DNA of 64,000 bases from a virus (Duplodnaviria > Caudoviricetes), in the IMG/VR virus record IMGVR_UViG_3300028805_000048; one strand, given 5' to 3'. Positions 10,140-44,767 of this stretch are shown piece after piece. The stretch's first letter is position 1. Every line of letters begins with the position of its first letter. The position numbers were made by a program, and so were the translations under genes. The notes beneath the pieces are model-generated. The model had not been told where the DNA came from. It made no database searches and saw only the letters and a list, made by a program, of their open reading frames with translations.

Positions 10140-10171
10140 GGCTTTACTTTATCCCAAGTATAGTTTATTAT
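10140..10171 (+). promoter_or_regulatory. Sigma70-like early promoter
   Basis: GGC-TTTACT-N17-TATTAT. Confidence 0.7.
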
Positions 10172-10256
10172 TAGTATATCAAAAGATATGATATAATCTC
10201 CAAACAATTATTATGTTATTGTTTTAATTTAATTTTTTAGAAAGGAAGGTATTAAT

Positions 10257-27839: not shown

Positions 27840-28154
27840 ATGATTTTCTATACAGAGTTTAAAAATAGAATGAAACTAAGTGAGTTTTTATATGAAATTT
27901 TTTATAAAGAAAATTGTATTAGATATCAAATATCATTGATTTTACCTGGTTGTATAAAATTTAATTATTTACAGCAATACCAAATACATAGAATTGAAGA
28001 AATTTTAAAAAATGTTTATTTATATGATTATTTTGAAATCTATCAATCAAATGATCGTAAAAAAATGGTTGTTGAATTAAAAAATGAATATAACAATGAA
28101 GAAAAGGTAGAAAATATTATATTAATTCTCAAATTAAAAGGATTATTTTTATAA
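27840..28154 (+). CDS. Small protein, C-terminal motif family
   Basis: Ends ENIILILKLKGLFL. Confidence 0.75.
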   Translation: MIFYTEFKNRMKLSEFLYEIFYKENCIRYQISLILPGCIKFNYLQQYQIHRIEEILKNVYLYDYFEIYQSNDRKKMVVELKNEYNNEEKVENIILILKLKGLFL

Positions 28155-28192
28155 AACTCACGATTTCAAAAATTGCAAAGGGTAATAAATTA

Positions 28193-28549
28193 ATGATTAA
28201 TTATAAAAAATATGATGAAATAGTTAGAATGTTGAACAATTTAGTGAATAAATATTTTCCTAAAGAAAATGATTCTATCGATTCACCTGTTTTTATTGTT
28301 CAAAACTGTTTAAAATATTCAGAAAAAACACTTGCTAGTGTACCTACATATATATGGTTTAAAGTTTATAATAACAATGACGTTTTTGCTTTTTATAATC
28401 CAAAGAATAGAAAAGAAACAGTGGAGTATTTCATAAATAATTGGAATTTTATATGTCAAGAAGAAAATTATACACGTAGAAAATATATTACCTTTAAAGT
28501 AAATGATGTTGATGAATTATATATGTCATTAAAATTATTAATTTCTTAA
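28193..28549 (+). CDS. Small protein, C-terminal motif family (divergent)
   Basis: Ends DELYMSLKLLIS. Confidence 0.7.
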   Translation: MINYKKYDEIVRMLNNLVNKYFPKENDSIDSPVFIVQNCLKYSEKTLASVPTYIWFKVYNNNDVFAFYNPKNRKETVEYFINNWNFICQEENYTRRKYITFKVNDVDELYMSLKLLIS

Positions 28550-28557
28550 AAACAAAA

Positions 28558-28588
28558 GCTTTACTTTTTATATTTTTAACTATATTAT
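28558..28588 (+). promoter_or_regulatory. Sigma70-like early promoter
   Basis: GC-TTTACT-N17-TATTAT. Confidence 0.65.
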
Positions 28589-28628
28589 ATAAATAGTTAA
28601 AATACGAAAAGGTGTAAAGGTATAAATA

Positions 28629-28991
28629 ATGAAATTGCGTCAAGGAGATATAGTTTATATACAAAAAGAAGACAATAGTGATCCAGATAAGTGGCATAAA
28701 TCTAATGAAATTTATGTTATAAGAGATCAAAGTGAACAATCTGTACATTTAAAAGTAACACATAAAATAAGTGATGATGATTTTGTTGAATATAAAGAAT
28801 TAATATATGCTAAATTGAGTAAAATATTTTTATATTTTGCCGGTTATGGAAGAATGAAAGAATTAGATTATTTAGAATTAAATTTAATTTGCGCAGAATT
28901 AGAAATACCAAGTCAAGTCGTTGAAAAGTTTGTAAACGTCTGTAATGGTGAAAAGATTAATAAAAGCAAAATACATTATGTATACCTATAA
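28629..28991 (+). CDS. Small protein, second C-terminal motif family
   Basis: LDYLEL...LEIPSQVVEKFVNVCN. Confidence 0.75.
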   Translation: MKLRQGDIVYIQKEDNSDPDKWHKSNEIYVIRDQSEQSVHLKVTHKISDDDFVEYKELIYAKLSKIFLYFAGYGRMKELDYLELNLICAELEIPSQVVEKFVNVCNGEKINKSKIHYVYL

Positions 28992-29014
28992 AACTATTTA
29001 TGAGGAAATAAAAA

Positions 29015-29356
29015 GTGACAATGTTAGCTGATAAATACTTTCAAATAAGACCAGATTTCAGAATAGAATTGTTTGGTAATGATAACCAAGGTTGGGGTGA
29101 TGGTAGAATATTTTTAACTGGTACAAAAATATTAGATGATAGTCTACGCTTAGTAGAAAATCAATATACGTTTATATATGATATATATCAAAATAGTTAT
29201 AAACTGCGTTTATATAATAACATTGACAATAGTCAAGTATTAGATTATTTTCAAACATTAATTGAACTTAAAAAATTCAATATACCAGACGAAATCGGTA
29301 ATGAATTTTTAGAATTGTGCAATAAAGCTCGTTCTGATTTAATTATAGTTAAATGA
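29015..29356 (+). CDS. Small protein, second C-terminal motif family
   Basis: LDYFQT...FNIPDEIGNEFLELCN. Confidence 0.75.
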   Translation: MTMLADKYFQIRPDFRIELFGNDNQGWGDGRIFLTGTKILDDSLRLVENQYTFIYDIYQNSYKLRLYNNIDNSQVLDYFQTLIELKKFNIPDEIGNEFLELCNKARSDLIIVK

Positions 29357-29383
29357 GGCAATGCTTATTAAAGGTTATAAAAA

Positions 29384-29713
29384 ATGACTATACGAATACT
29401 TGATACAGATATAATCTTTCACGATAAAAAAGAAAAAAATCGTTTATTGATGATTAGAAAAACATATATTAAATTATATGATACATACGTTATATATCTT
29501 ATGAGCTTATATAAGCATACTTGTTATGGATATAGACAAGAATTTGAAATAATGAAAAATAATGAAAATGCTTATTGTTTAAATTTTCCTAGTTTAGGAA
29601 GAATTTACACTTTTGATTATTTAGAAATATTGTTAAAATCACAGCAGATGAATATACCTGATAATGTGATGAATGAATTTATAAATATCTGTAACAAATA
29701 TCATAATAGATAG
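29384..29713 (+). CDS. Small protein, second C-terminal motif family
   Basis: FDYLEI...MNIPDNVMNEFINICN. Confidence 0.75.
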   Translation: MTIRILDTDIIFHDKKEKNRLLMIRKTYIKLYDTYVIYLMSLYKHTCYGYRQEFEIMKNNENAYCLNFPSLGRIYTFDYLEILLKSQQMNIPDNVMNEFINICNKYHNR

Positions 29714-29720
29714 TTATGAT

Positions 29721-30599
29721 TTATTGTTGCTTTTCATACCATTTCATAAATTCTTCAAGAGTCCAAAATTCTAGCCAGTTAAGATTATTCTTTTTAGCAG
29801 TTTCACGTTTTAATGGATCAGAAACAGTCCAGACGCATATCGCTACATCATAACTTTTATAACCTTCTTTGGCTTTTTGTTTCCATTTTCTTAACGTTTC
29901 TCTATGAATTTCATTATTTTCATCAAAAGGTCCAAGTGGTTTATTTAATATCCATCCATGGGTCCAATAACCTTGATATTCGATCCAAGTATCAACTTCT
30001 GGAATATAAAAATCACAAGCAAATGGATATTTTTCTGTATTGTATTGTCTTTTTGTAAACGGATAAATGACTTTTAATAATTCATATATGTAATCTTCAG
30101 TTTTAGATTTTTTAAATAAATTGTGTTTTTTCTTTGTTTCAAATGCCTTTTTCCAGATGTTTTTATTTTGCATATTGTGTTCGACGCCATATCGATTTAA
30201 ATTAGTTTGTTTTATTTTGTTTTTAACCTCATCTAATTGAAATACATTAATTATTTCATTATCATTCAAATACTTATCCATTTTTTCTTTATAATCTTTT
30301 GTTTTGAAATATATATCATCACCATATTTCTCTTTACAAGTATGTTTAATCTTTTTTAATGTTTCTGGAATACCTCCTGCATTCGTTGTACCATATTTTT
30401 CTAAACATATTTTTTCTGTATTTTTTACACGTAAAGAAATAGGTTTGCGTATATTCAATTCAGCTATTCGTTCTTTAAGTAAGGCTTCTGAAACTTCAAA
30501 ATATTTAGCTAATTCTTTTCTTGTTTTATTTTCAACTATGTAAAGTTGATATAATTCATCATAATGAATTTTATTACGTAAATTTTTCATGTTTTTCAT
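29721..30599 (-). CDS. Putative endonuclease (HTH, KYG repeats, Vsr/DUF559-like domain)
   Basis: RKELAKYFEVS HTH; repeated EKYG/RYG units; CDFYIP..WIEYQGYWTHG. Confidence 0.65.
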   Translation of the reverse strand: MKNMKNLRNKIHYDELYQLYIVENKTRKELAKYFEVSEALLKERIAELNIRKPISLRVKNTEKICLEKYGTTNAGGIPETLKKIKHTCKEKYGDDIYFKTKDYKEKMDKYLNDNEIINVFQLDEVKNKIKQTNLNRYGVEHNMQNKNIWKKAFETKKKHNLFKKSKTEDYIYELLKVIYPFTKRQYNTEKYPFACDFYIPEVDTWIEYQGYWTHGWILNKPLGPFDENNEIHRETLRKWKQKAKEGYKSYDVAICVWTVSDPLKRETAKKNNLNWLEFWTLEEFMKWYEKQQ

Positions 30600-30713
30600 C
30601 TAAACAATATTTTAACCATTTATATAGAACTATAAAAAATGGTTAGATAACATAAGCTATCTAACCAAATCGGTTAAAATATCACGTAAAACATGACCTT
30701 ATATAGAACTATA

Positions 30714-31520
30714 TTATGCCCATAAACCTTGTTTTAAAACAGCATGATTTTTTAAAGAATCTGTTTCTTCTTTGAGTTTTTCAAGACGTTTTTGTAATGC
30801 ATCTGTAGAAATTTGAAAATCTGCATCAAACTTAACACCATCGCGCGCTTGTATAATTGATTCGATAAAACGGTATGATATAAATTTACAAACTATATCA
30901 ACATTATCAAATTCAACATATTCTGGAGTATCATAACCCCAATATGTTTGAAAAGACATTTGACCAATACCAAATGCAGGATGAAGATAAACGCGTTCTT
31001 CTTCCGTCGATATAGTATATTGTGGTTGACCGGCAGATAATTCATCTAAAGTGTTATTGTATAACAAACCTAATACATCTTTATTTGTCGCACTCACTGA
31101 GCCAACATTCGCAACTCCTAGCATGGCCATATCCCAAATTGATGGATTGGCTAAAAGGGTCCATGGAGCTCTTTCCATTTTACCTAAACCTAAGAAATAT
31201 GCATGATCTAAATCTTTACATGCTGGAACAGAATATTCTAATATTTCATCAAATGTAAAATATGTTGCGCCATTTTCCTGATGAGGAGGTTTTACGCCAT
31301 TCCATACAAATCCAATTGTAGAATCTGAACCACTTGTTGTGCTATATGTTGTGATATACATACTGCGTCTTGGATAATAACGGTAATAGTCCATTGTTCC
31401 AAGCATGATAGCTCTTTCACGCAACAAACTTTCTTTTTGTGATATTTCTAAGTTTGGATTTGCTAAATCTAGATCTAAAGCAGCGTTAACGACTTTCATT
31501 ACAGGATTTAATTTTGTCAT
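30714..31520 (-). CDS. Putative neck / head-completion protein (T4 gp13-like)
   Basis: Size, N-terminal helix ending DYY and C-terminal helix-turn-coiled coil resemble gp13; in an AGTTCTA operon. Confidence 0.4.
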   Translation of the reverse strand: MTKLNPVMKVVNAALDLDLANPNLEISQKESLLRERAIMLGTMDYYRYYPRRSMYITTYSTTSGSDSTIGFVWNGVKPPHQENGATYFTFDEILEYSVPACKDLDHAYFLGLGKMERAPWTLLANPSIWDMAMLGVANVGSVSATNKDVLGLLYNNTLDELSAGQPQYTISTEEERVYLHPAFGIGQMSFQTYWGYDTPEYVEFDNVDIVCKFISYRFIESIIQARDGVKFDADFQISTDALQKRLEKLKEETDSLKNHAVLKQGLWA

Positions 31521-31538
31521 CTCATTATATCCTTTTTT

Positions 31539-31991
31539 TTAATAATCTGTAGTATGTAATTCAATTCTTCCTGAATTAATTAATTTCTGTGCTACTTGCT
31601 CTTTATAACCTTCTGGTAACATTTCTGTAATGTCAATCCAATTTGTTCTATCTTTAGCCCAATCTTCTAAATATATTTTAGAGACGGTTAATTCTTCATC
31701 ATATGGATAACCTTCAATTTCATATTCTATTTTACAGTCTAATTCACAAGTTGGAATAAGATTACCTTGTTCATCTTTAAGATCTTCATCTGAAAGAATG
31801 TTTGCGTTGATAATTGTTTGATATATCTGTTCATTTAATGGTAAATCTAATGTCCATATAATTTCATCATCACCTGTATGATCAAACGGATGTTGTGAAG
31901 CATATTTCAATTCACTTTCATCATCCCATTCTTTAAGATCTATATTATTTTCTTGTAAAACTTTGTGTACTAATTGTTCAAATTGATACAT
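31539..31991 (-). CDS. Putative internal head protein, leader B, acidic cargo
   Basis: MYQFEQLVHKVLQENNIDLKE; AGTTCTA at 32036-32042. Confidence 0.6.
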   Translation of the reverse strand: MYQFEQLVHKVLQENNIDLKEWDDESELKYASQHPFDHTGDDEIIWTLDLPLNEQIYQTIINANILSDEDLKDEQGNLIPTCELDCKIEYEIEGYPYDEELTVSKIYLEDWAKDRTNWIDITEMLPEGYKEQVAQKLINSGRIELHTTDY

Positions 31992-32048
31992 ATCTAAATA
32001 ACCTATATTTTTAATGAAGTTTAAACTTATATAATTAGAACTAGCATA

Positions 32049-32312
32049 TAAAACAACAGGTTCCTCTAGGTTAATTACTCCTATTGGAACCTGCTTTTTT
32101 CATGAAAAATACATAGAAGCCTTGACTTCGCTTATATTTCCCGGATTTGCACCGTACTACATATTTTTCTTAGCTATATCTACCTAATCAACTGGATACA
32201 TATATTGATCAAATACACTTACAGTCCGATACCGATATAAAGACAAGATACTGCCTTATCTTTGTTACCTGAAACATCTTTATGGCCACTCAATCAGGAC
32301 TCACCAAAGATA
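32049..32312 (-). ncRNA. Candidate structured ncRNA with T-loop hairpin
   Basis: Own GGCTTTACA promoter (32341-32349, minus), multiple helices, terminator caggttcc/ggaacctg, no ORF. Confidence 0.6.
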
Positions 32313-32395
32313 TATTTTATATATAATAAAGTGTTGGTTTTGTAAAGCCTTTTTATAAAGTTCTAAAAATTAAATATTTTTTAAGGATAATTATA

Positions 32396-32896
32396 ATGAT
32401 GACTTTAGAAGAAAGAATAGAAGATTTACGTCGTAAAGTTAATGAACTTTTAGGTGAAGATGTTTATCATTTTGATAAGTATCATACAGATAGAACAAAT
32501 ATAAACAATTTTATGAAAACATATAGTGGTATATTTATGCCACTCGATAAAAATAAAGATTATGAATATAAATCTCTTAAAAGCTTTGTGAAAAGAAATT
32601 TGAATAGAAATACATATTTCGCTAATAAAAATTTAAATAAAAATTATGTAGATTTAAATAATCAAAATGATGTAAACGAAATTACAAAAGCATTAAATGA
32701 TCTTAAAGAAGATACATATGCCTATGATGCTTTCAAAGATTTATCAAATAGATTAGGTTTGAGTGAAATAAATACTCTTTGTATTTTAATGAGTCTTTGT
32801 CATGGATTAGAATTAAGTAAAGTTGAAGAATATAAACTTAATACAGCTAATCAGTATGGATTAAGATACGGTCAAAAATCAACTAAAGTCGCATAA
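32396..32896 (+). CDS. Hypothetical late protein with possible leader ending LLGE
   Basis: AGTTCTA at 32359-32365. Confidence 0.65.
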   Translation: MMTLEERIEDLRRKVNELLGEDVYHFDKYHTDRTNINNFMKTYSGIFMPLDKNKDYEYKSLKSFVKRNLNRNTYFANKNLNKNYVDLNNQNDVNEITKALNDLKEDTYAYDAFKDLSNRLGLSEINTLCILMSLCHGLELSKVEEYKLNTANQYGLRYGQKSTKVA

Positions 32897-32898
32897 TT

Positions 32899-32930
32899 GG
32901 CTTTACTTTTAATTTGAAATAGTTTATTTG
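32899..32930 (+). promoter_or_regulatory. Sigma70-like early promoter
   Basis: GGC-TTTACT-N17-TATTTG. Confidence 0.55.
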
Positions 32931-32951
32931 TTATTTTAAAGGAAATAACAA

Positions 32952-33518
32952 ATGCTAAAAGATTTTATTTTAAACTTAACAAAAGCTGAATATAAAATTA
33001 ACCTTTTAATGCTTGGAAAAAAAGAAGCTTTAAAAGATAATAAATATTGTCTTTTTTCATTAACTGGACAAGAATGGCGAAATTGTTCTATTTTATCATA
33101 TACTGATTCTAGACAATTTGTTTCTGAAAAAGAAATAGTAGAATTATTTGAAGATAAAATAGAAAAAATATATCCTTCTCTTTGTAAAGTTGGATATTAC
33201 GATTTTGATAAAACAGGAATCTGTGGTATATATGAAGATAAACTCAGTGACTTTGTAAAAGATATTGAATTACCAAAAGAATACGAATATTTGCTCATAA
33301 AAAGATTTTTACAAGGATATCTTACTTTAACTTTAAATTCTACAAATACACTCACGCCAACTTTCAAACTAAGAAAAGCTTGGACAGATATAAATGATAT
33401 AAAAAGAATAGAAAAAGAATATCTTCTAAAACTTGTTAAAGAAACAGAATATGATTATGAATTAAAGATTTGTGAACCAGATGGTCTTCTTGGATTATTA
33501 ATGATGAAAGAAGACTAA
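32952..33518 (+). CDS. Hypothetical protein with divergent C-terminal motif
   Basis: Ends DGLLGLLMMKED. Confidence 0.7.
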   Translation: MLKDFILNLTKAEYKINLLMLGKKEALKDNKYCLFSLTGQEWRNCSILSYTDSRQFVSEKEIVELFEDKIEKIYPSLCKVGYYDFDKTGICGIYEDKLSDFVKDIELPKEYEYLLIKRFLQGYLTLTLNSTNTLTPTFKLRKAWTDINDIKRIEKEYLLKLVKETEYDYELKICEPDGLLGLLMMKED

Positions 33519-34117
33519 TCCTCTTTTACAGAATCATTTCCGTAAATATCCATCCCTCTTGCTTTTTGAGCAAAATATTCATCGCTATCGTATTGTAAAG
33601 ACTTTGGTGGATGTTTATATTCTTCATATGTCAATTCTGGATTAGCATACCAGTCGTTAAATTCGTCCATGTTAAATATCTCAACATATCGATAACCTAA
33701 CTCTTTAGCTATTTTACGCTTTAATGGCTCTAACTCTGTCCATGTATAAAGAACTTTCGCGTAATAATCACCTTTTTTAGACTTAAGCCATTCTACATCA
33801 GCTTGACAGCTTGGATCTTCTGGATCGTATGGACGTCTTCCATGACGCCAGTTTTTATTGATTTGAATCATCATCTTTTCAGATGGTACATAAGCATCTA
33901 CTTGCCACGGTCTATGATTAGAAGGATTGCGAAAATCATCAAAAGTCACAGATTTTTCTGCATCTGGCCATTTTTTCTTGATCAAATTCCAATAGTATTC
34001 TTCGTCTTCAGAGCTATTATATCCGCTATCTTTATCGAATATTTTTCCATCGCCTTCTTCGAGGTTATAACCGTAATTTTCTAATATGCTTTCTACAAGC
34101 TTTTCAAACTGAGACAT
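33515..34117 (-). CDS. Putative internal head protein, leader B plus Vsr/DUF559-like domain
   Basis: MSQFEKLVESILENYGYNLEE; VDAYVP..QINKNWRHG aligns with 29721. Confidence 0.6.
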   Translation of the reverse strand: MSQFEKLVESILENYGYNLEEGDGKIFDKDSGYNSSEDEEYYWNLIKKKWPDAEKSVTFDDFRNPSNHRPWQVDAYVPSEKMMIQINKNWRHGRRPYDPEDPSCQADVEWLKSKKGDYYAKVLYTWTELEPLKRKIAKELGYRYVEIFNMDEFNDWYANPELTYEEYKHPPKSLQYDSDEYFAQKARGMDIYGNDSVKED

Positions 34118-34187
34118 ATCTTAATAAATCCTATATTTCATGATGTTATTTAGAACTTAATTTTTGTAAATTAAGACAATGATAAAA

Positions 34188-34219
34188 GGCTTTACATGAT
34201 AAATGCAATATGATATTAT
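34188..34219 (+). promoter_or_regulatory. Sigma70-like early promoter
   Basis: GGC-TTTACA-N17-TATTAT. Confidence 0.65.
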
Positions 34220-34248
34220 TTATTATATTTGATGTAAAGGAATTTGTC

Positions 34249-34557
34249 ATGGGTCGATACACATTAAAAACTGCTAAAAATAAACATAAAAAAGAATTTT
34301 CTTGTGTTGAAAAATGGGATGGTGAAAGTGGTGATGTATTTTCAATAGAAATAATTGGTAATAATTTAAAAGATACATATATTTCGTATGACGTGTATCA
34401 TGATTTTATCATATCTATCAATAAAGATAAATCGTTACGTTATGAGCATTTCGATTTGTTAAAGCTGTTAGTATTTATAGAGATGTATGATATTCCTAAA
34501 AAAGTCGTAGAAAAATTTATTTCAAAAATAACAGCTATAAGACAAAAAATTAACTAA
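34249..34557 (+). CDS. Small protein, second C-terminal motif family
   Basis: FDLLKL...YDIPKKVVEKFI. Confidence 0.7.
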   Translation: MGRYTLKTAKNKHKKEFSCVEKWDGESGDVFSIEIIGNNLKDTYISYDVYHDFIISINKDKSLRYEHFDLLKLLVFIEMYDIPKKVVEKFISKITAIRQKIN

Positions 34558-34618
34558 AGGTTTTACAATTTACTTCATGCATGGATAGTTAATATATAAA
34601 TTTAAAAAGAGATTAATC

Positions 34619-34936
34619 ATGATAACAGATCATATATACAAATACAAATCAGGTAAAACTTATCACATCGGCTATATTCCAAATATATATTTATATATTG
34701 AAATACGTAACAATAAATTTGTTGAATATTTCATTGATTATGATGCTTTACACATTGATAAAAAAATACATTGTAGGAAATATGATGAAAGTGTATGCAG
34801 TTTTATAATAGATGGTGTATTTTGTTTTGATTTCATGTTGATTGTTTATAAATTGGCTAAATTAAATATTCCAAAAAGAGTATCAAACGCCTTTTTGAAA
34901 AAAGCGCAAGAATTAAATCAATGTTTAAAAGGGTAA
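34619..34936 (+). CDS. Small protein, second C-terminal motif family
   Basis: FDFMLI...LNIPKRVSNAFL. Confidence 0.7.
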   Translation: MITDHIYKYKSGKTYHIGYIPNIYLYIEIRNNKFVEYFIDYDALHIDKKIHCRKYDESVCSFIIDGVFCFDFMLIVYKLAKLNIPKRVSNAFLKKAQELNQCLKG

Positions 34937-34941
34937 TTTGA

Positions 34942-35307
34942 ATGCATAGAATTAATTTTAAACTTCATTATCCTCAATACGATATATCTGAAATATCAGA
35001 TTATATAGTATTTAAAAATTTGATTTTAGATAATAAAGATAAACCGATTATATACAAAAATGATGAAATATATATAAATGATGATTGTACACGTTTATCG
35101 ATTTCATATACTATTTACGGTATGGATATGATGGTGCAAGAGAGTATAGAAGAAGCTATTAATAGAATAAAATATTATATAGTATTAAATGGTTTAGATG
35201 AATACATTAGTGTAAAACAAGATTATGAAACAAATATCATTTTACAATTTTTTGTAAAAAATATAAATGAATTGAAAGTAGATTTTAAATTGAGAGGAAT
35301 AATATAA
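34942..35307 (+). CDS. Small protein, C-terminal motif family
   Basis: Ends NELKVDFKLRGII. Confidence 0.7.
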   Translation: MHRINFKLHYPQYDISEISDYIVFKNLILDNKDKPIIYKNDEIYINDDCTRLSISYTIYGMDMMVQESIEEAINRIKYYIVLNGLDEYISVKQDYETNIILQFFVKNINELKVDFKLRGII

Positions 35308-35609
35308 TGAAAAAATTTACAAATGAACAAATATTTGAATTTCTTATGTTAATTTCTGAAGAATTAAAAGTGTTTATTCCATTTTCTAAAAGAATGGAAA
35401 TTTATCGTTTATATAAAGAAACATATTCTGAAAAGAGTACACCAAATATTAGATTACCTAAATATATATTAAAAGGAATAAAAGAATCTGATATAAAAGA
35501 TTTTGAAAACAAATATGGTTTAATGGTACTCAATAGCTATAATTATGATTTTATAATGTTTTTAGATTTTGATAATTTTTTCACATTTCTAAAATTGAAA
35601 GGTAAATAA
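35307..35609 (+). CDS. Small protein, C-terminal motif family
   Basis: Ends DNFFTFLKLKGK. Confidence 0.75.
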   Translation: MKKFTNEQIFEFLMLISEELKVFIPFSKRMEIYRLYKETYSEKSTPNIRLPKYILKGIKESDIKDFENKYGLMVLNSYNYDFIMFLDFDNFFTFLKLKGK

Positions 35610-36091
35610 TGTTGACGAAAGATGACGAATACATAATGATTGTACACGGTACATTAGGTAGAAAATTTATTAGATGGCTATCTAAACGTTGTGATGTGTT
35701 TGAAGTCAATAAAGTCTGTGATCATGCCATTAGATATGGTGTATATAATGATACAAAAAGATATTCTGATAAAAAGGTTATCGAAAATTTAAAATATAGT
35801 AGACCATACGTTATTAGATTTGAGTTAAATGAAGATATGAAAACTGTACTTCTTTTAGCAGGAATTAATTTAGAGAAATATATCAACGATATGTGGTGTC
35901 CAATATATATAAGTCACAATGCACCATATGGACGAAAGAATATGCGTAAATATTATGGAGCTGCTAATCGTAAAGATTTATGTATAGCAATATTAGCGTA
36001 TTGGTCTCATTCACACCCTAGATGTTTTCCTCATGATATAATTTATTATCATGATAGAAAGAAAGGAGTAGAAAATGGAAACATGGATTGA
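35609..36091 (+). CDS. Hypothetical protein
   Basis: Internal EDMKTVLLLAG resembles the family motif. Confidence 0.7.
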   Translation: MLTKDDEYIMIVHGTLGRKFIRWLSKRCDVFEVNKVCDHAIRYGVYNDTKRYSDKKVIENLKYSRPYVIRFELNEDMKTVLLLAGINLEKYINDMWCPIYISHNAPYGRKNMRKYYGAANRKDLCIAILAYWSHSHPRCFPHDIIYYHDRKKGVENGNMD

Positions 36092-44155: not shown

Positions 44156-44235
44156 TATATATAAACCTGTAAAATTTTAACAATATTTATTTATAGAACT
44201 AATTTGTTGTTATAATCACATTGTTTTCATTCAAT

Positions 44236-44267
44236 GGCTTTACTTTTTGTATGATAATAGCTATATT
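44236..44267 (+). promoter_or_regulatory. Sigma70-like early promoter
   Basis: GGC-TTTACT-N17-TATATT. Confidence 0.65.
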
Positions 44268-44308
44268 TACAATATAATAAATTACATATTAAAAATTTTC
44301 AAAGGAGA

Positions 44309-44767
44309 GTGTTTATGACCATCAAAACTATAAAAGATAAAGCTGCTTTACGTAAAAGTAAGCAAAAAACAATAAAATTAGGAAGAAGAAGTATAAATGA
44401 TATAATAAAAAGTAAAAGTTTATCATTTCCTGAAAAAATCGATTATATTCGTCATCATTACACATACTATGAAGGAAATGCTAATCTATTTGATAACCAA
44501 TATGAATACAGACGTTCTTGGTTAAATAAGTTAATAGAAGGTGTAATAAATAGAAAATACCAACCTTGTGTTTTGAAAAGTTTTAATAGAATCATAATGA
44601 AATGGCGTAAAAATCCAAATTATAAACCAAAACGAAGTGAAATATATATAGAAAAGCGATATGCTGATTTATGTAATTCTATAGATTTTTTTGATTTAAT
44701 TGAGTTGCAAAATTATATATCAAATGATAATAAGGAGAATTTGCAAGAAAATGTTATTGCCTTATAA
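44309..44767 (+). CDS. Basic hypothetical protein
   Basis: YIRHHYTYYE segment; RBS. Confidence 0.7.
   Translation: MFMTIKTIKDKAALRKSKQKTIKLGRRSINDIIKSKSLSFPEKIDYIRHHYTYYEGNANLFDNQYEYRRSWLNKLIEGVINRKYQPCVLKSFNRIIMKWRKNPNYKPKRSEIYIEKRYADLCNSIDFFDLIELQNYISNDNKENLQENVIAL

Follow-up and report, generated by a model that had tools for sequence, protein, structure and literature searches.

The stretch of DNA analysed here (64 kb, hereafter the window) has a GC content of ~26% and uses the standard genetic code. Among the proteins it encodes are a gp23-type major capsid protein, the anaerobic ribonucleotide reductase NrdD, an NAD-dependent DNA ligase, an Rnl1-type RNA ligase, and a Dda/Pif1-type helicase, a set which points to a large T4-like myovirus of an anaerobe as the source. 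DNA of the window is present in sheep-gut metagenomes, and the closest relatives of its capsid protein (69-89% identity) belong to IMG/VR genomes and contigs, the largest of which measure 227-237 kb. The Prevotella Lak megaphages are the sole deposited phages matched by positions 28001-36000 of the window, and a homing-endonuclease-like gene located there (29721-30599, minus strand; DUF7487, PHROG "homing endonuclease") shows DNA matches of 65-74% to these megaphages.

ORF150 and ORF166 are separated by a gap of 404 nt (31992-32395), in a window where the median gap is 29 nt. Only five other gaps reach at least 200 nt, and two of them contain ORFs (small ORFs with ribosome-binding sites in gap 10140-10571, and an uncalled ORF of 152 aa in gap 44156-44699). 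In the 404-nt gap, neither strand holds an ORF of at least 30 aa, and stops are present in all six frames. The sole small ORF (MFQV..., 22 aa) is frameshifted after codon 4 by a 1-nt insertion in L024, one of the related contigs described below, while a 3-nt indel found among the variants sits in a junction. The possibility that the region is a remnant of the 366-aa ORF of the G001 type, whose C-terminus resembles ORF150, was discarded, as tblastn with the G001 protein finds nothing in the RNA region.

What the minus strand of this gap carries is a non-coding transcription unit (32349-32046) made up of a promoter, ~263 nt of putatively transcribed sequence, and an intrinsic terminator (Table 1). 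The initial annotation had described a stand-alone structured RNA gene of about 260 nt with its own promoter and terminator and no ORF; its length agrees with the one predicted from these signals, and its stand-alone and non-coding nature is borne out by the variants and by the stops in the six frames. The RNA body stands out in composition (35% GC, against 23% across all gaps of the window), and the RNA strand is G-rich, with a GC skew of +0.31.

Table 1. Position of the RNA gene, its elements and other features in the window
Feature	Position	Strand	Basis or remark
gp23-type major capsid protein	14367-15926	minus	
ORF150 (150 aa)	31991-31539	minus	one flank of the RNA-bearing gap
AGTTCTA motif ahead of ORF 31991-31539	32036-32042	minus	separate promoter-like element, outside the RNA
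Intrinsic terminator: stem 32095-32080 with 32070-32055, then UUGUUUUAU	32046-32095	minus	14-bp interrupted stem plus U-tract
Predicted noncoding transcript, ~263 nt	32048-32311	minus	ends predicted from promoter and terminator
Three-way junction closed by 13-bp stem (32169-32157 with 32116-32104)	32104-32169	minus	covariation
Second small hairpin (AAGC/GCUU; alternative GAAGU-CAAG-GCUUC)	32117-32133	minus	variation in loop or pairing-compatible
Hairpin CGG-UGCAAAU-CCG with T-loop-like heptaloop	32142-32154	minus	stem invariant
Purine-rich linker UAGGUAGAUAUAGCUAA	32170-32186	minus	nearly invariant: single change, G to U in L035 (alignments A6, A7)
Central hairpin H3: AUCG-ACUG/CAGU-UGAU closing GUGUAUU/AAUAUAU	32187-32230	minus	covariation
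Hairpin H2 (tentative): GGUA..AAAGAUAAGG / UCUUGUCUUU.UAUC	32234-32269	minus	RNAalifold
5' hairpin H1 (tentative): leader AUAUCUUUG.GU.GUCCU pairs with AG.UGGC.CAUAAAGAUGU	32274-32313	minus	RNAalifold
-10 hexamer TATATA, 17 nt past TTTACA	32318-32323	minus	read from sequence
Extended -35 GGCTTTAC (TTTACA = 32346-32341)	32342-32349	minus	recurrent motif, invariant in all variants
ORF166	32396-32896	plus	other flank of the RNA-bearing gap

Promoter, terminator and adjacent signals

The 8-mer that forms the extended -35 element is present in 20 copies in the window, compared with 0.74 expected. Most of these copies have a TATAAT-like hexamer downstream of the embedded TTTAC(A/T), separated from it by 16-18 nt. 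Many copies are intergenic and precede ORFs. According to these features, the GGCTTTAC class reads as a sigma70-type promoter with an extended -35, and it probably represents the consensus for early promoters in this phage group, for which it offers a handle on early transcription. The sites include 4065, 10140, 19829, 20578, 32899, 36931, 39096, 44236, and 52740, as well as 32349 and 59631 on the minus strand, and the same promoter class is also found in the relatives L033, L035, L036, and L038. At the RNA gene, transcription would start near 32311. This promoter had been missed by a consensus scan because its -10 hexamer lacks the final T. Given that the GCTTTA core recalls the MotA box of T4, a MotA-type middle promoter was also considered; the idea was dropped, since the Pfam domain MotA_activ is absent from three near-complete relatives and a spacing of 17 nt agrees with an ordinary -35/-10 promoter.

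Comparison of the variants demonstrates that the promoter is maintained as such. The -10 block ATTATATA is identical in every variant, the -35 and -10 hexamers are invariant, and no indel alters the spacing between them. On the contrary, 10 of the 13 columns located between GGCTTTAC and the -10 block vary, compared with 31 of the 206 columns of the RNA body (Fisher p = 4e-6; 0.002 without L024). At the other end, the pairs of the terminator stem change compatibly across the variants, one position appearing as C-G, U-G, or U-A and a second one as C-G or U-G. An A-tract upstream of the terminator gives it a two-way appearance, and it was overlooked by a consensus scan because its loop is 9 nt long. 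Sequence comparison therefore reveals the layout of a stand-alone sRNA gene, with its own promoter, its own intrinsic terminator, and no conserved reading frame.

The motif AGTTCTA, which follows the terminator, is found at a distance of 30-50 nt before the start of many ORFs, in most cases on the minus strand; it is also found at 32359-32365 (plus strand) and at 14 other sites. By count the motif is not enriched (16 in the window against 12.2 expected), and for this reason its designation as a count-supported late promoter was set aside and it is used here as a positional marker only. If AGTTCTA is a late-promoter element, the signal resides in its position rather than in its number. The phage is also contained in a sheep-gut metatranscriptome (X3), whose contigs cover the late genes next to the RNA, over 30687-31999, at 100% identity; the lack of cover over 32014-33023 is uninformative either way, as only assembled contigs are available. 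The end of the covered region at 31999 falls 37 nt downstream of AGTTCTA. Taken together, the motif just past the terminator and this contig end indicate that ORF150 seems to own separate start signals.

Variants, gene contexts and constraint

Variants of the RNA were reached through contigs that encode close relatives of the neighbouring proteins. Six full and three partial variants are available (among them contigs L024, L033, L035, L036, and L038; partial in L030, L031, and L032), all of them in gut metagenome contigs and all at least ~92% identical over the RNA. Outside this set, BLASTN of the 601-nt stretch against 50,697 phage records returns no match. In five related IMG/VR genomes, BLASTN and a covariance model (R1, 136 positions) yield chance matches only, the best model match falling within an ORF, and the flanking ORFs are not found in these genomes either. 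The covariance model detects no second copy in the window, and the RNA is absent from L034, a contig with a relative of the upstream ORF. Exact-pattern scans with conserved blocks of the RNA in viral, metagenome, and genome contig collections gave a single chance match, in the unrelated contig L029. What emerges is a genuine phage ncRNA gene that had not been classified before, representing a narrow family which, so far as these searches reach, is confined to one lineage of rumen T4-like phages.

The RNA unit occurs in three different gene contexts. In the window and in L024, AGTTCTA and ORF150 come next after the terminator. In L033, L035, L036, and L038, another GG(C/T)TTTAC promoter appears ~8 nt after the U-tract and precedes an unrelated gene of 268 aa, past which lie a late-type motif and a fusion of a SAM-lyase domain with ORF150. 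The upstream neighbour also changes: L036 and L038 carry a same-strand gene for a 327-aa beta-flower protein there, L024 has a different gene, and the window has ORF166, which is divergent. The whole island is contained in the 44-kb contig L038. The window differs from L038 in that three upstream genes have been exchanged and, downstream of the RNA, one gene (268 aa) and one domain (SAM-lyase) have been lost; the RNA itself is retained.

Several observations concern the island itself (L038 8110-15004, compared with window 29721-34117). In the window, two opposite-strand ORFs replace the three same-strand genes found upstream of the RNA in L038, and opposite-strand genes with AGTTCTA lie inside a block of small ORFs. 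In both L038 and the window, the DUF7487 gene ends the island. The ORF150 module moves between proteins. In the window it stands free (31539-31991, minus strand), while in L033 (1316-2275), L036, and L038 it is fused behind a SAM-lyase domain of the anti-restriction type (89% identity over 148 aa). ORF150 is also weakly similar to the C-terminal part of the 366-aa ORF in G001 (L023 2878-3978 is listed with the module), and its N-terminal peptide (MxQFExLV..) recurs on a nuclease-like ORF of the window (33515-34117, minus strand).

The RNA is better conserved than the adjacent gene at the larger divergences, with identities of 95.3% versus 86.2% for L033 and L036, and of 93.4% versus 87.2% for L035 and L036. 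In the close pair L033/L035, no difference is observed, both the RNA and the neighbouring gene being 94.9% identical. The best conserved part is the terminator region, with one change in ~104 nt between the window and L024. These comparisons indicate that the RNA is under purifying selection and has been retained through local rearrangement.

Folding of the RNA

The whole stretch folds better than expected (z = -4.3), while the RNA body alone (32303-32100) reaches only z = -0.90. The former value is thus due to the terminator and to pairing of the AU-rich flanks, and the body lies only 1-1.4 SD below expectation when compared with a GC-corrected window background. With a body so close to background, thermodynamics by itself does not establish the fold. 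Regarding the strand, the initial annotation had proposed that G-U pairs favour the minus one. This holds, as A-U/G-U exchanges among variants are tolerated on that strand only, and region 32101-32300 folds with -42.7 kcal/mol on the minus strand versus -23.7 kcal/mol on the plus strand, a difference which partly reflects the G-richness of the former.

More informative is the covariation. RNAalifold, applied to five full sequences, predicts 88 pairs, of which four are changed on both sides: two in the central hairpin, one in the closing pair of the 13-bp stem, and one in the terminator. Column shuffles produce 1.2 +/- 0.9 compensatory pairs (2/500 reach four), and slid partners 0-1. Since the structure was derived from the same alignment, a randomisation with refolding was added, in which the observed substitution columns were moved to random same-base columns and RNAalifold was re-run each time (n = 150). 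These refolded randomisations yield 0.45 compensatory pairs on average and a maximum of three, so that none of the 150 reaches the observed four. Broken cells are also fewer than in the randomisations (7 versus 12.3; P = 0.04). The check on homolog covariation that the initial annotation had suggested comes out in favour of a structured RNA (four compensatory pairs against 0.45 expected), although, with all copies at least ~92% identical and from one narrow phage lineage, this evidence amounts to a handful of events. Part of the fold is nevertheless demonstrated by these pairs.

The best documented element is the central hairpin H3, in which 32230-32222 pair with 32194-32187 and 32218-32212 with 32206-32200. 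Its covarying pairs change from U-A to A-U and among G-U, A-U, and G-C, with zero broken cells. The initial annotation had drawn other helices here, AGUCC(U)GAU/AUCGGACU and UUUGAUCAA/UUGAUUAGG, both without covariation, and each disrupted in one variant (by A.A in L024 and by U.U in L035, respectively). Both use strands of H3 and are therefore mutually exclusive with it, and they are probably either wrong or an alternative conformer. The stability of H3 roughly equals that of the competing helix, the two central folds being ~1 kcal/mol apart. When L038 is added, the energy term draws RNAalifold of the six sequences towards the competing central helix again, which then has two broken cells and no covariation; L038 also supplies extra wobble states in the terminator.

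The 5' part is less well defined. In H1, the diverged leader of L024 introduces four one-sided compatible changes, and the hairpin has two broken cells and no compensatory pair. H2 presents two compatible changes and one A.C break. The helices AUAAAGAU/GUCUUUAU and AAGAUA/UAUCUU of the initial annotation, each with one compatible change and one break, compete with these RNAalifold 5' hairpins, H2 in particular. As compatible changes and a break are found in both versions, neither is preferred. Between H3 and the junction, the linker UAGGUAGAUAUAGCUAA is a candidate interaction site. Ten of its bases are paired by RNAalifold in a weak 5-bp hairpin, a pairing that is broken by the G to U change in L035.

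The 13-bp stem is located where the initial annotation had placed it, and its pairing is backed by one compensatory pair and by compatible changes at two further pairs. The closing pair passes from G-C to A-U in L036 and L038, and the compatible changes consist of A-U/G-U and U-G/U-A exchanges. Against it, three cells are mismatched (G.G in L033 and L035, U.U in L036). In L038 the stem is fully paired, with G-U and A-U where L036 has U.U. The two small hairpins that this stem encloses also stand as they had been described, including CGG-UGCAAAU-CCG at the position originally assigned to it. The T-loop motif is a five-residue fold with a reverse-Hoogsteen pair between U1 and A5 and a base stacked between positions 4 and 5. 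In the heptaloop of the phage RNA only two positions vary, the second being G or U and the sixth A or G, while U1, C3, A4, A5, and U7 are identical in all variants, and the canonical UUCAAGU is found only in L035. Its sequence allows a T-loop, with U1 and A5 invariant, but the variants have diverged so little that the invariant loop bases prove nothing about it.

Known RNAs and possible modes of action

The comparison with known families that the initial annotation had proposed supports its designation as an unclassified phage ncRNA, together with the conserved promoter and terminator and the covariation among relatives. Searches of the 64-kb window against Rfam 15 give no match at gathering scores; at E up to 10, three chance matches appear (19.5/50, 16.3/49, and 14.8/45 bits, two to eukaryotic snoRNA families and one to an Enterococcus sRNA), and the tRNA, tmRNA, Y-RNA, and T-box models yield nothing.

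In T4, RNAC and RNAD (the stable RNAs "species 1 and 2") are 120-140 nt in length, map in the tRNA cluster, and are cut from a precursor. They have been classed as late RNAs and described as "RNAs of yet unknown functions" (PMC9697503). The phage RNA resembles them as a small noncoding RNA of a T4-type phage without assigned function. Unlike them, it measures ~263 nt, is framed by a terminator and an early-type promoter of its own, lies in a 64-kb window in which ARAGORN finds no tRNA gene, and lacks a sequence match among the 50,697 deposited phage records. Other large lytic phages also provide candidates, such as ncRNA1 and ncRNA2 of PAK_P3 and those of phiKZ, which are intergenic small RNAs with an unknown role; the ncRNA candidates of virulent phages have been defined by expression, and many derive from UTRs through processing (PMC10914365). 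In contrast, the rumen-phage RNA is defined by comparative sequence alone and looks like a primary transcript made from a promoter of its own.

Some bacterial Y RNAs (YrlA) are encoded by phages (PMC4201824). The phage RNA shares with them a long stem and a module with a T-arm-like hairpin. However, it has no Rfam match and no D-arm or acceptor-like part, and its T-like stem is of 3 bp. Moreover, the long stem of Y RNAs is terminal, while that of the phage RNA closes the 3' domain only. No Ro60/Rsr (TROVE) protein is detected among the 25 window ORFs scanned against Pfam. The pRNA of phi29 is a protein-bound structural part of phi29-like podoviruses, of ~120-174 nt, which forms rings by loop-loop contacts. 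The phage RNA is similar to it in having its own promoter and a three-way junction, but comes from a T4-like myovirus with a gp23-type capsid and shows no similarity to it by Rfam.

Two further resemblances were rejected. The T-loop box of cobalamin riboswitches (GGUGNNAAUCC) has in common with the phage RNA the string GGUGCAAAUCC. Other elements of these riboswitches are absent from the RNA, the Rfam model RF00174 finds nothing up to E = 10, and the likeness is regarded as an 11-nt coincidence. The chance match in the GC-rich JGI contig L029 (649-669), which fits a 21-nt T-loop pattern and is unrelated to the phage RNA, presumably also resembles the GGUGCAAAUCC box. A hammerhead-like CUGAUUGAG was dismissed by eye, as it contains one U too many, lacks a GAAA partner, and is not matched in Rfam.

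The reading we favour, with a probability of about 0.6, is that the locus is a stand-alone gene for an early, trans-acting structured noncoding RNA of ~263 nt of a T4-like rumen phage. A host-type (sigma70-like) RNA polymerase would initiate at the early-class promoter (GGCTTTAC, 17 nt, TATATA) and stop at the intrinsic terminator near 32048. The transcript is predicted to fold into a 5' hairpin, the central hairpin (32230-32187), and a three-way junction that holds the T-loop-like hairpin inside the 13-bp stem. This RNA would act in trans, binding or scaffolding a host or phage protein early in infection. Transcription, early timing, and the whole mode of action are thus proposed from sequence features. 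Binding or scaffolding of a protein is preferred, with low confidence, over seed-type pairing with an mRNA, because conservation extends over the whole molecule rather than being limited to a short seed, and the search for antisense targets in the window found none.

An unlikely alternative is that the RNA is an antisense sRNA. Base-pairing sRNAs are known in phages, such as OOP of lambda and sar of P22, and an unpaired conserved stretch, either the linker or the loop of the 5' hairpin, could pair with a phage or host mRNA and alter its translation or decay. The gene has the classical sRNA layout, with its own promoter and a Rho-independent terminator, and the invariant stretches are unpaired in most models. 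Nevertheless, the best RNAduplex score over 112 translation-start regions of the window (-30.0 kcal/mol) is equalled by 21% of the shuffled controls (-28.5 +/- 2.2), BLAST reveals no extended complementarity within the window, and conservation is spread over the 210-nt body with no seed focus. An unlikely explanation is also that of a functionless leftover, in which the promoter and terminator of a decayed small early gene have been kept as an insulator of the neighbouring late genes. The low folding signal of the body (z = -0.90), the lack of the RNA in the five related genomes, the mismatched pairs of the long stem, the equal identity of RNA and neighbouring gene in L033/L035, and the superior conservation of the terminator region would all be compatible with it. 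What it does not account for is a body ~5-fold less variable than the promoter spacer, an RNA that outconserves a coding gene at larger divergence, compensatory pairs in excess of all 150 randomisations, retention through two neighbour rearrangements, and a GC content well above the gap average (35% versus 23%). Control in cis, as an attenuator or riboswitch-like leader governing read-through into the downstream genes, is improbable, even though a terminator closes the RNA and same-strand genes always follow it. The downstream gene differs by context, and each time a promoter motif of its own follows within ~10 nt of the terminator; for these reasons the RNA is not regarded as a leader of ORF150. 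In such a leader, the 3' strand UAUGUAUUUUUC could pair with one of two partners, GAAAAAUAUGUAG, which is distal, and GGGAAAUAUA, which is nearby. Both exclusive partners are indeed compatible with the substitutions, and the central domain has two nearly isoenergetic folds, but the terminator stem lies outside the alternative pairings, a 13-bp closing stem makes a poor switch, and no riboswitch of Rfam is matched.

The remaining explanations give weight to the T-loop-like hairpin or to replication. It would be a long shot to propose a new class of early phage RNA in which the three-way junction shows a tRNA-elbow-like T-loop to a host protein and thereby blocks this protein, which could be a tRNA-directed defence nuclease or some other defence sensor that binds RNA. 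If this were true, an RNA anti-defence factor would sit beside a SAM-lyase anti-restriction gene in a variable island. The initial annotation had suggested a tRNA mimic or a decoy for defence proteins. A decoy of this sort, whose T-loop hairpin and junction would imitate the tRNA elbow and divert a tRNA-targeting nuclease of the host or a tRNA enzyme of either phage or host, is very improbable. The invariant U1, C3, A4, A5, and U7, the UUCAAGU of L035, the Rnl1-type RNA ligase of the phage, which makes tRNA damage a theme, and the SAM-lyase anti-restriction domain located two genes away in relatives speak for it. Beyond the T-loop-like heptaloop, however, the suggestion finds no support in the RNA: ARAGORN and the tRNA-type models of Rfam detect nothing, and among variants of such low divergence the invariant loop bases carry no weight. 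The T-arm stem of tRNA has 5 bp, compared with 3 bp in the phage RNA. Likewise, the T arm of tRNA is placed just ahead of the acceptor stem's 3' strand, while the phage hairpin follows the 5' strand of the 13-bp stem, a topology which is the mirror of that of tRNA. The T loop of tRNA also reads U54-U55-C56-R57-A58, while UGCAAAU has a G at the place of U55 (except in L035). As for replication, at oriF, oriG, and oriE of T4 an RNA from an early or middle promoter stays hybridised to its template and primes DNA synthesis. An origin primer (R-loop) of this type is scarcely credible here, despite the T4-like nature of the phage, the early-type promoter, and a non-coding G-rich transcript with a GC content above its surroundings. 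Compensatory changes keep hairpins that an R-loop primer does not need, the terminator is strong, no AT-rich unwinding element or iterons were noticed adjoining the RNA gene, and the cumulative GC skew shows no switch beyond the effect of gene orientation.

To our knowledge, few of the small RNAs made by large lytic phages have a defined gene structure, and almost none has a known function. The RNA gene of this uncultured rumen phage offers a clean case in which the promoter, the terminator, part of the fold, selection, and survival through gene shuffling all come from comparing variants. If it does bind a host or phage protein, an RNA-based early function would be added to the biology of T4-like phages. 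It is a well-supported candidate of narrow distribution, useful and at the same time unsurprising to a specialist. A similar arrangement on a smaller scale is observed elsewhere in the window (13935-14030, plus strand), where ~60 nt separate a GGCTTTAC promoter from a downstream hairpin, AAGCTTAGG...CCTAAGC, which leads into a T-run; the site lacks an ORF. Lying in a 574-nt gap beside the terminator of the capsid gene, it may be a second, very small RNA gene of ~55 nt.
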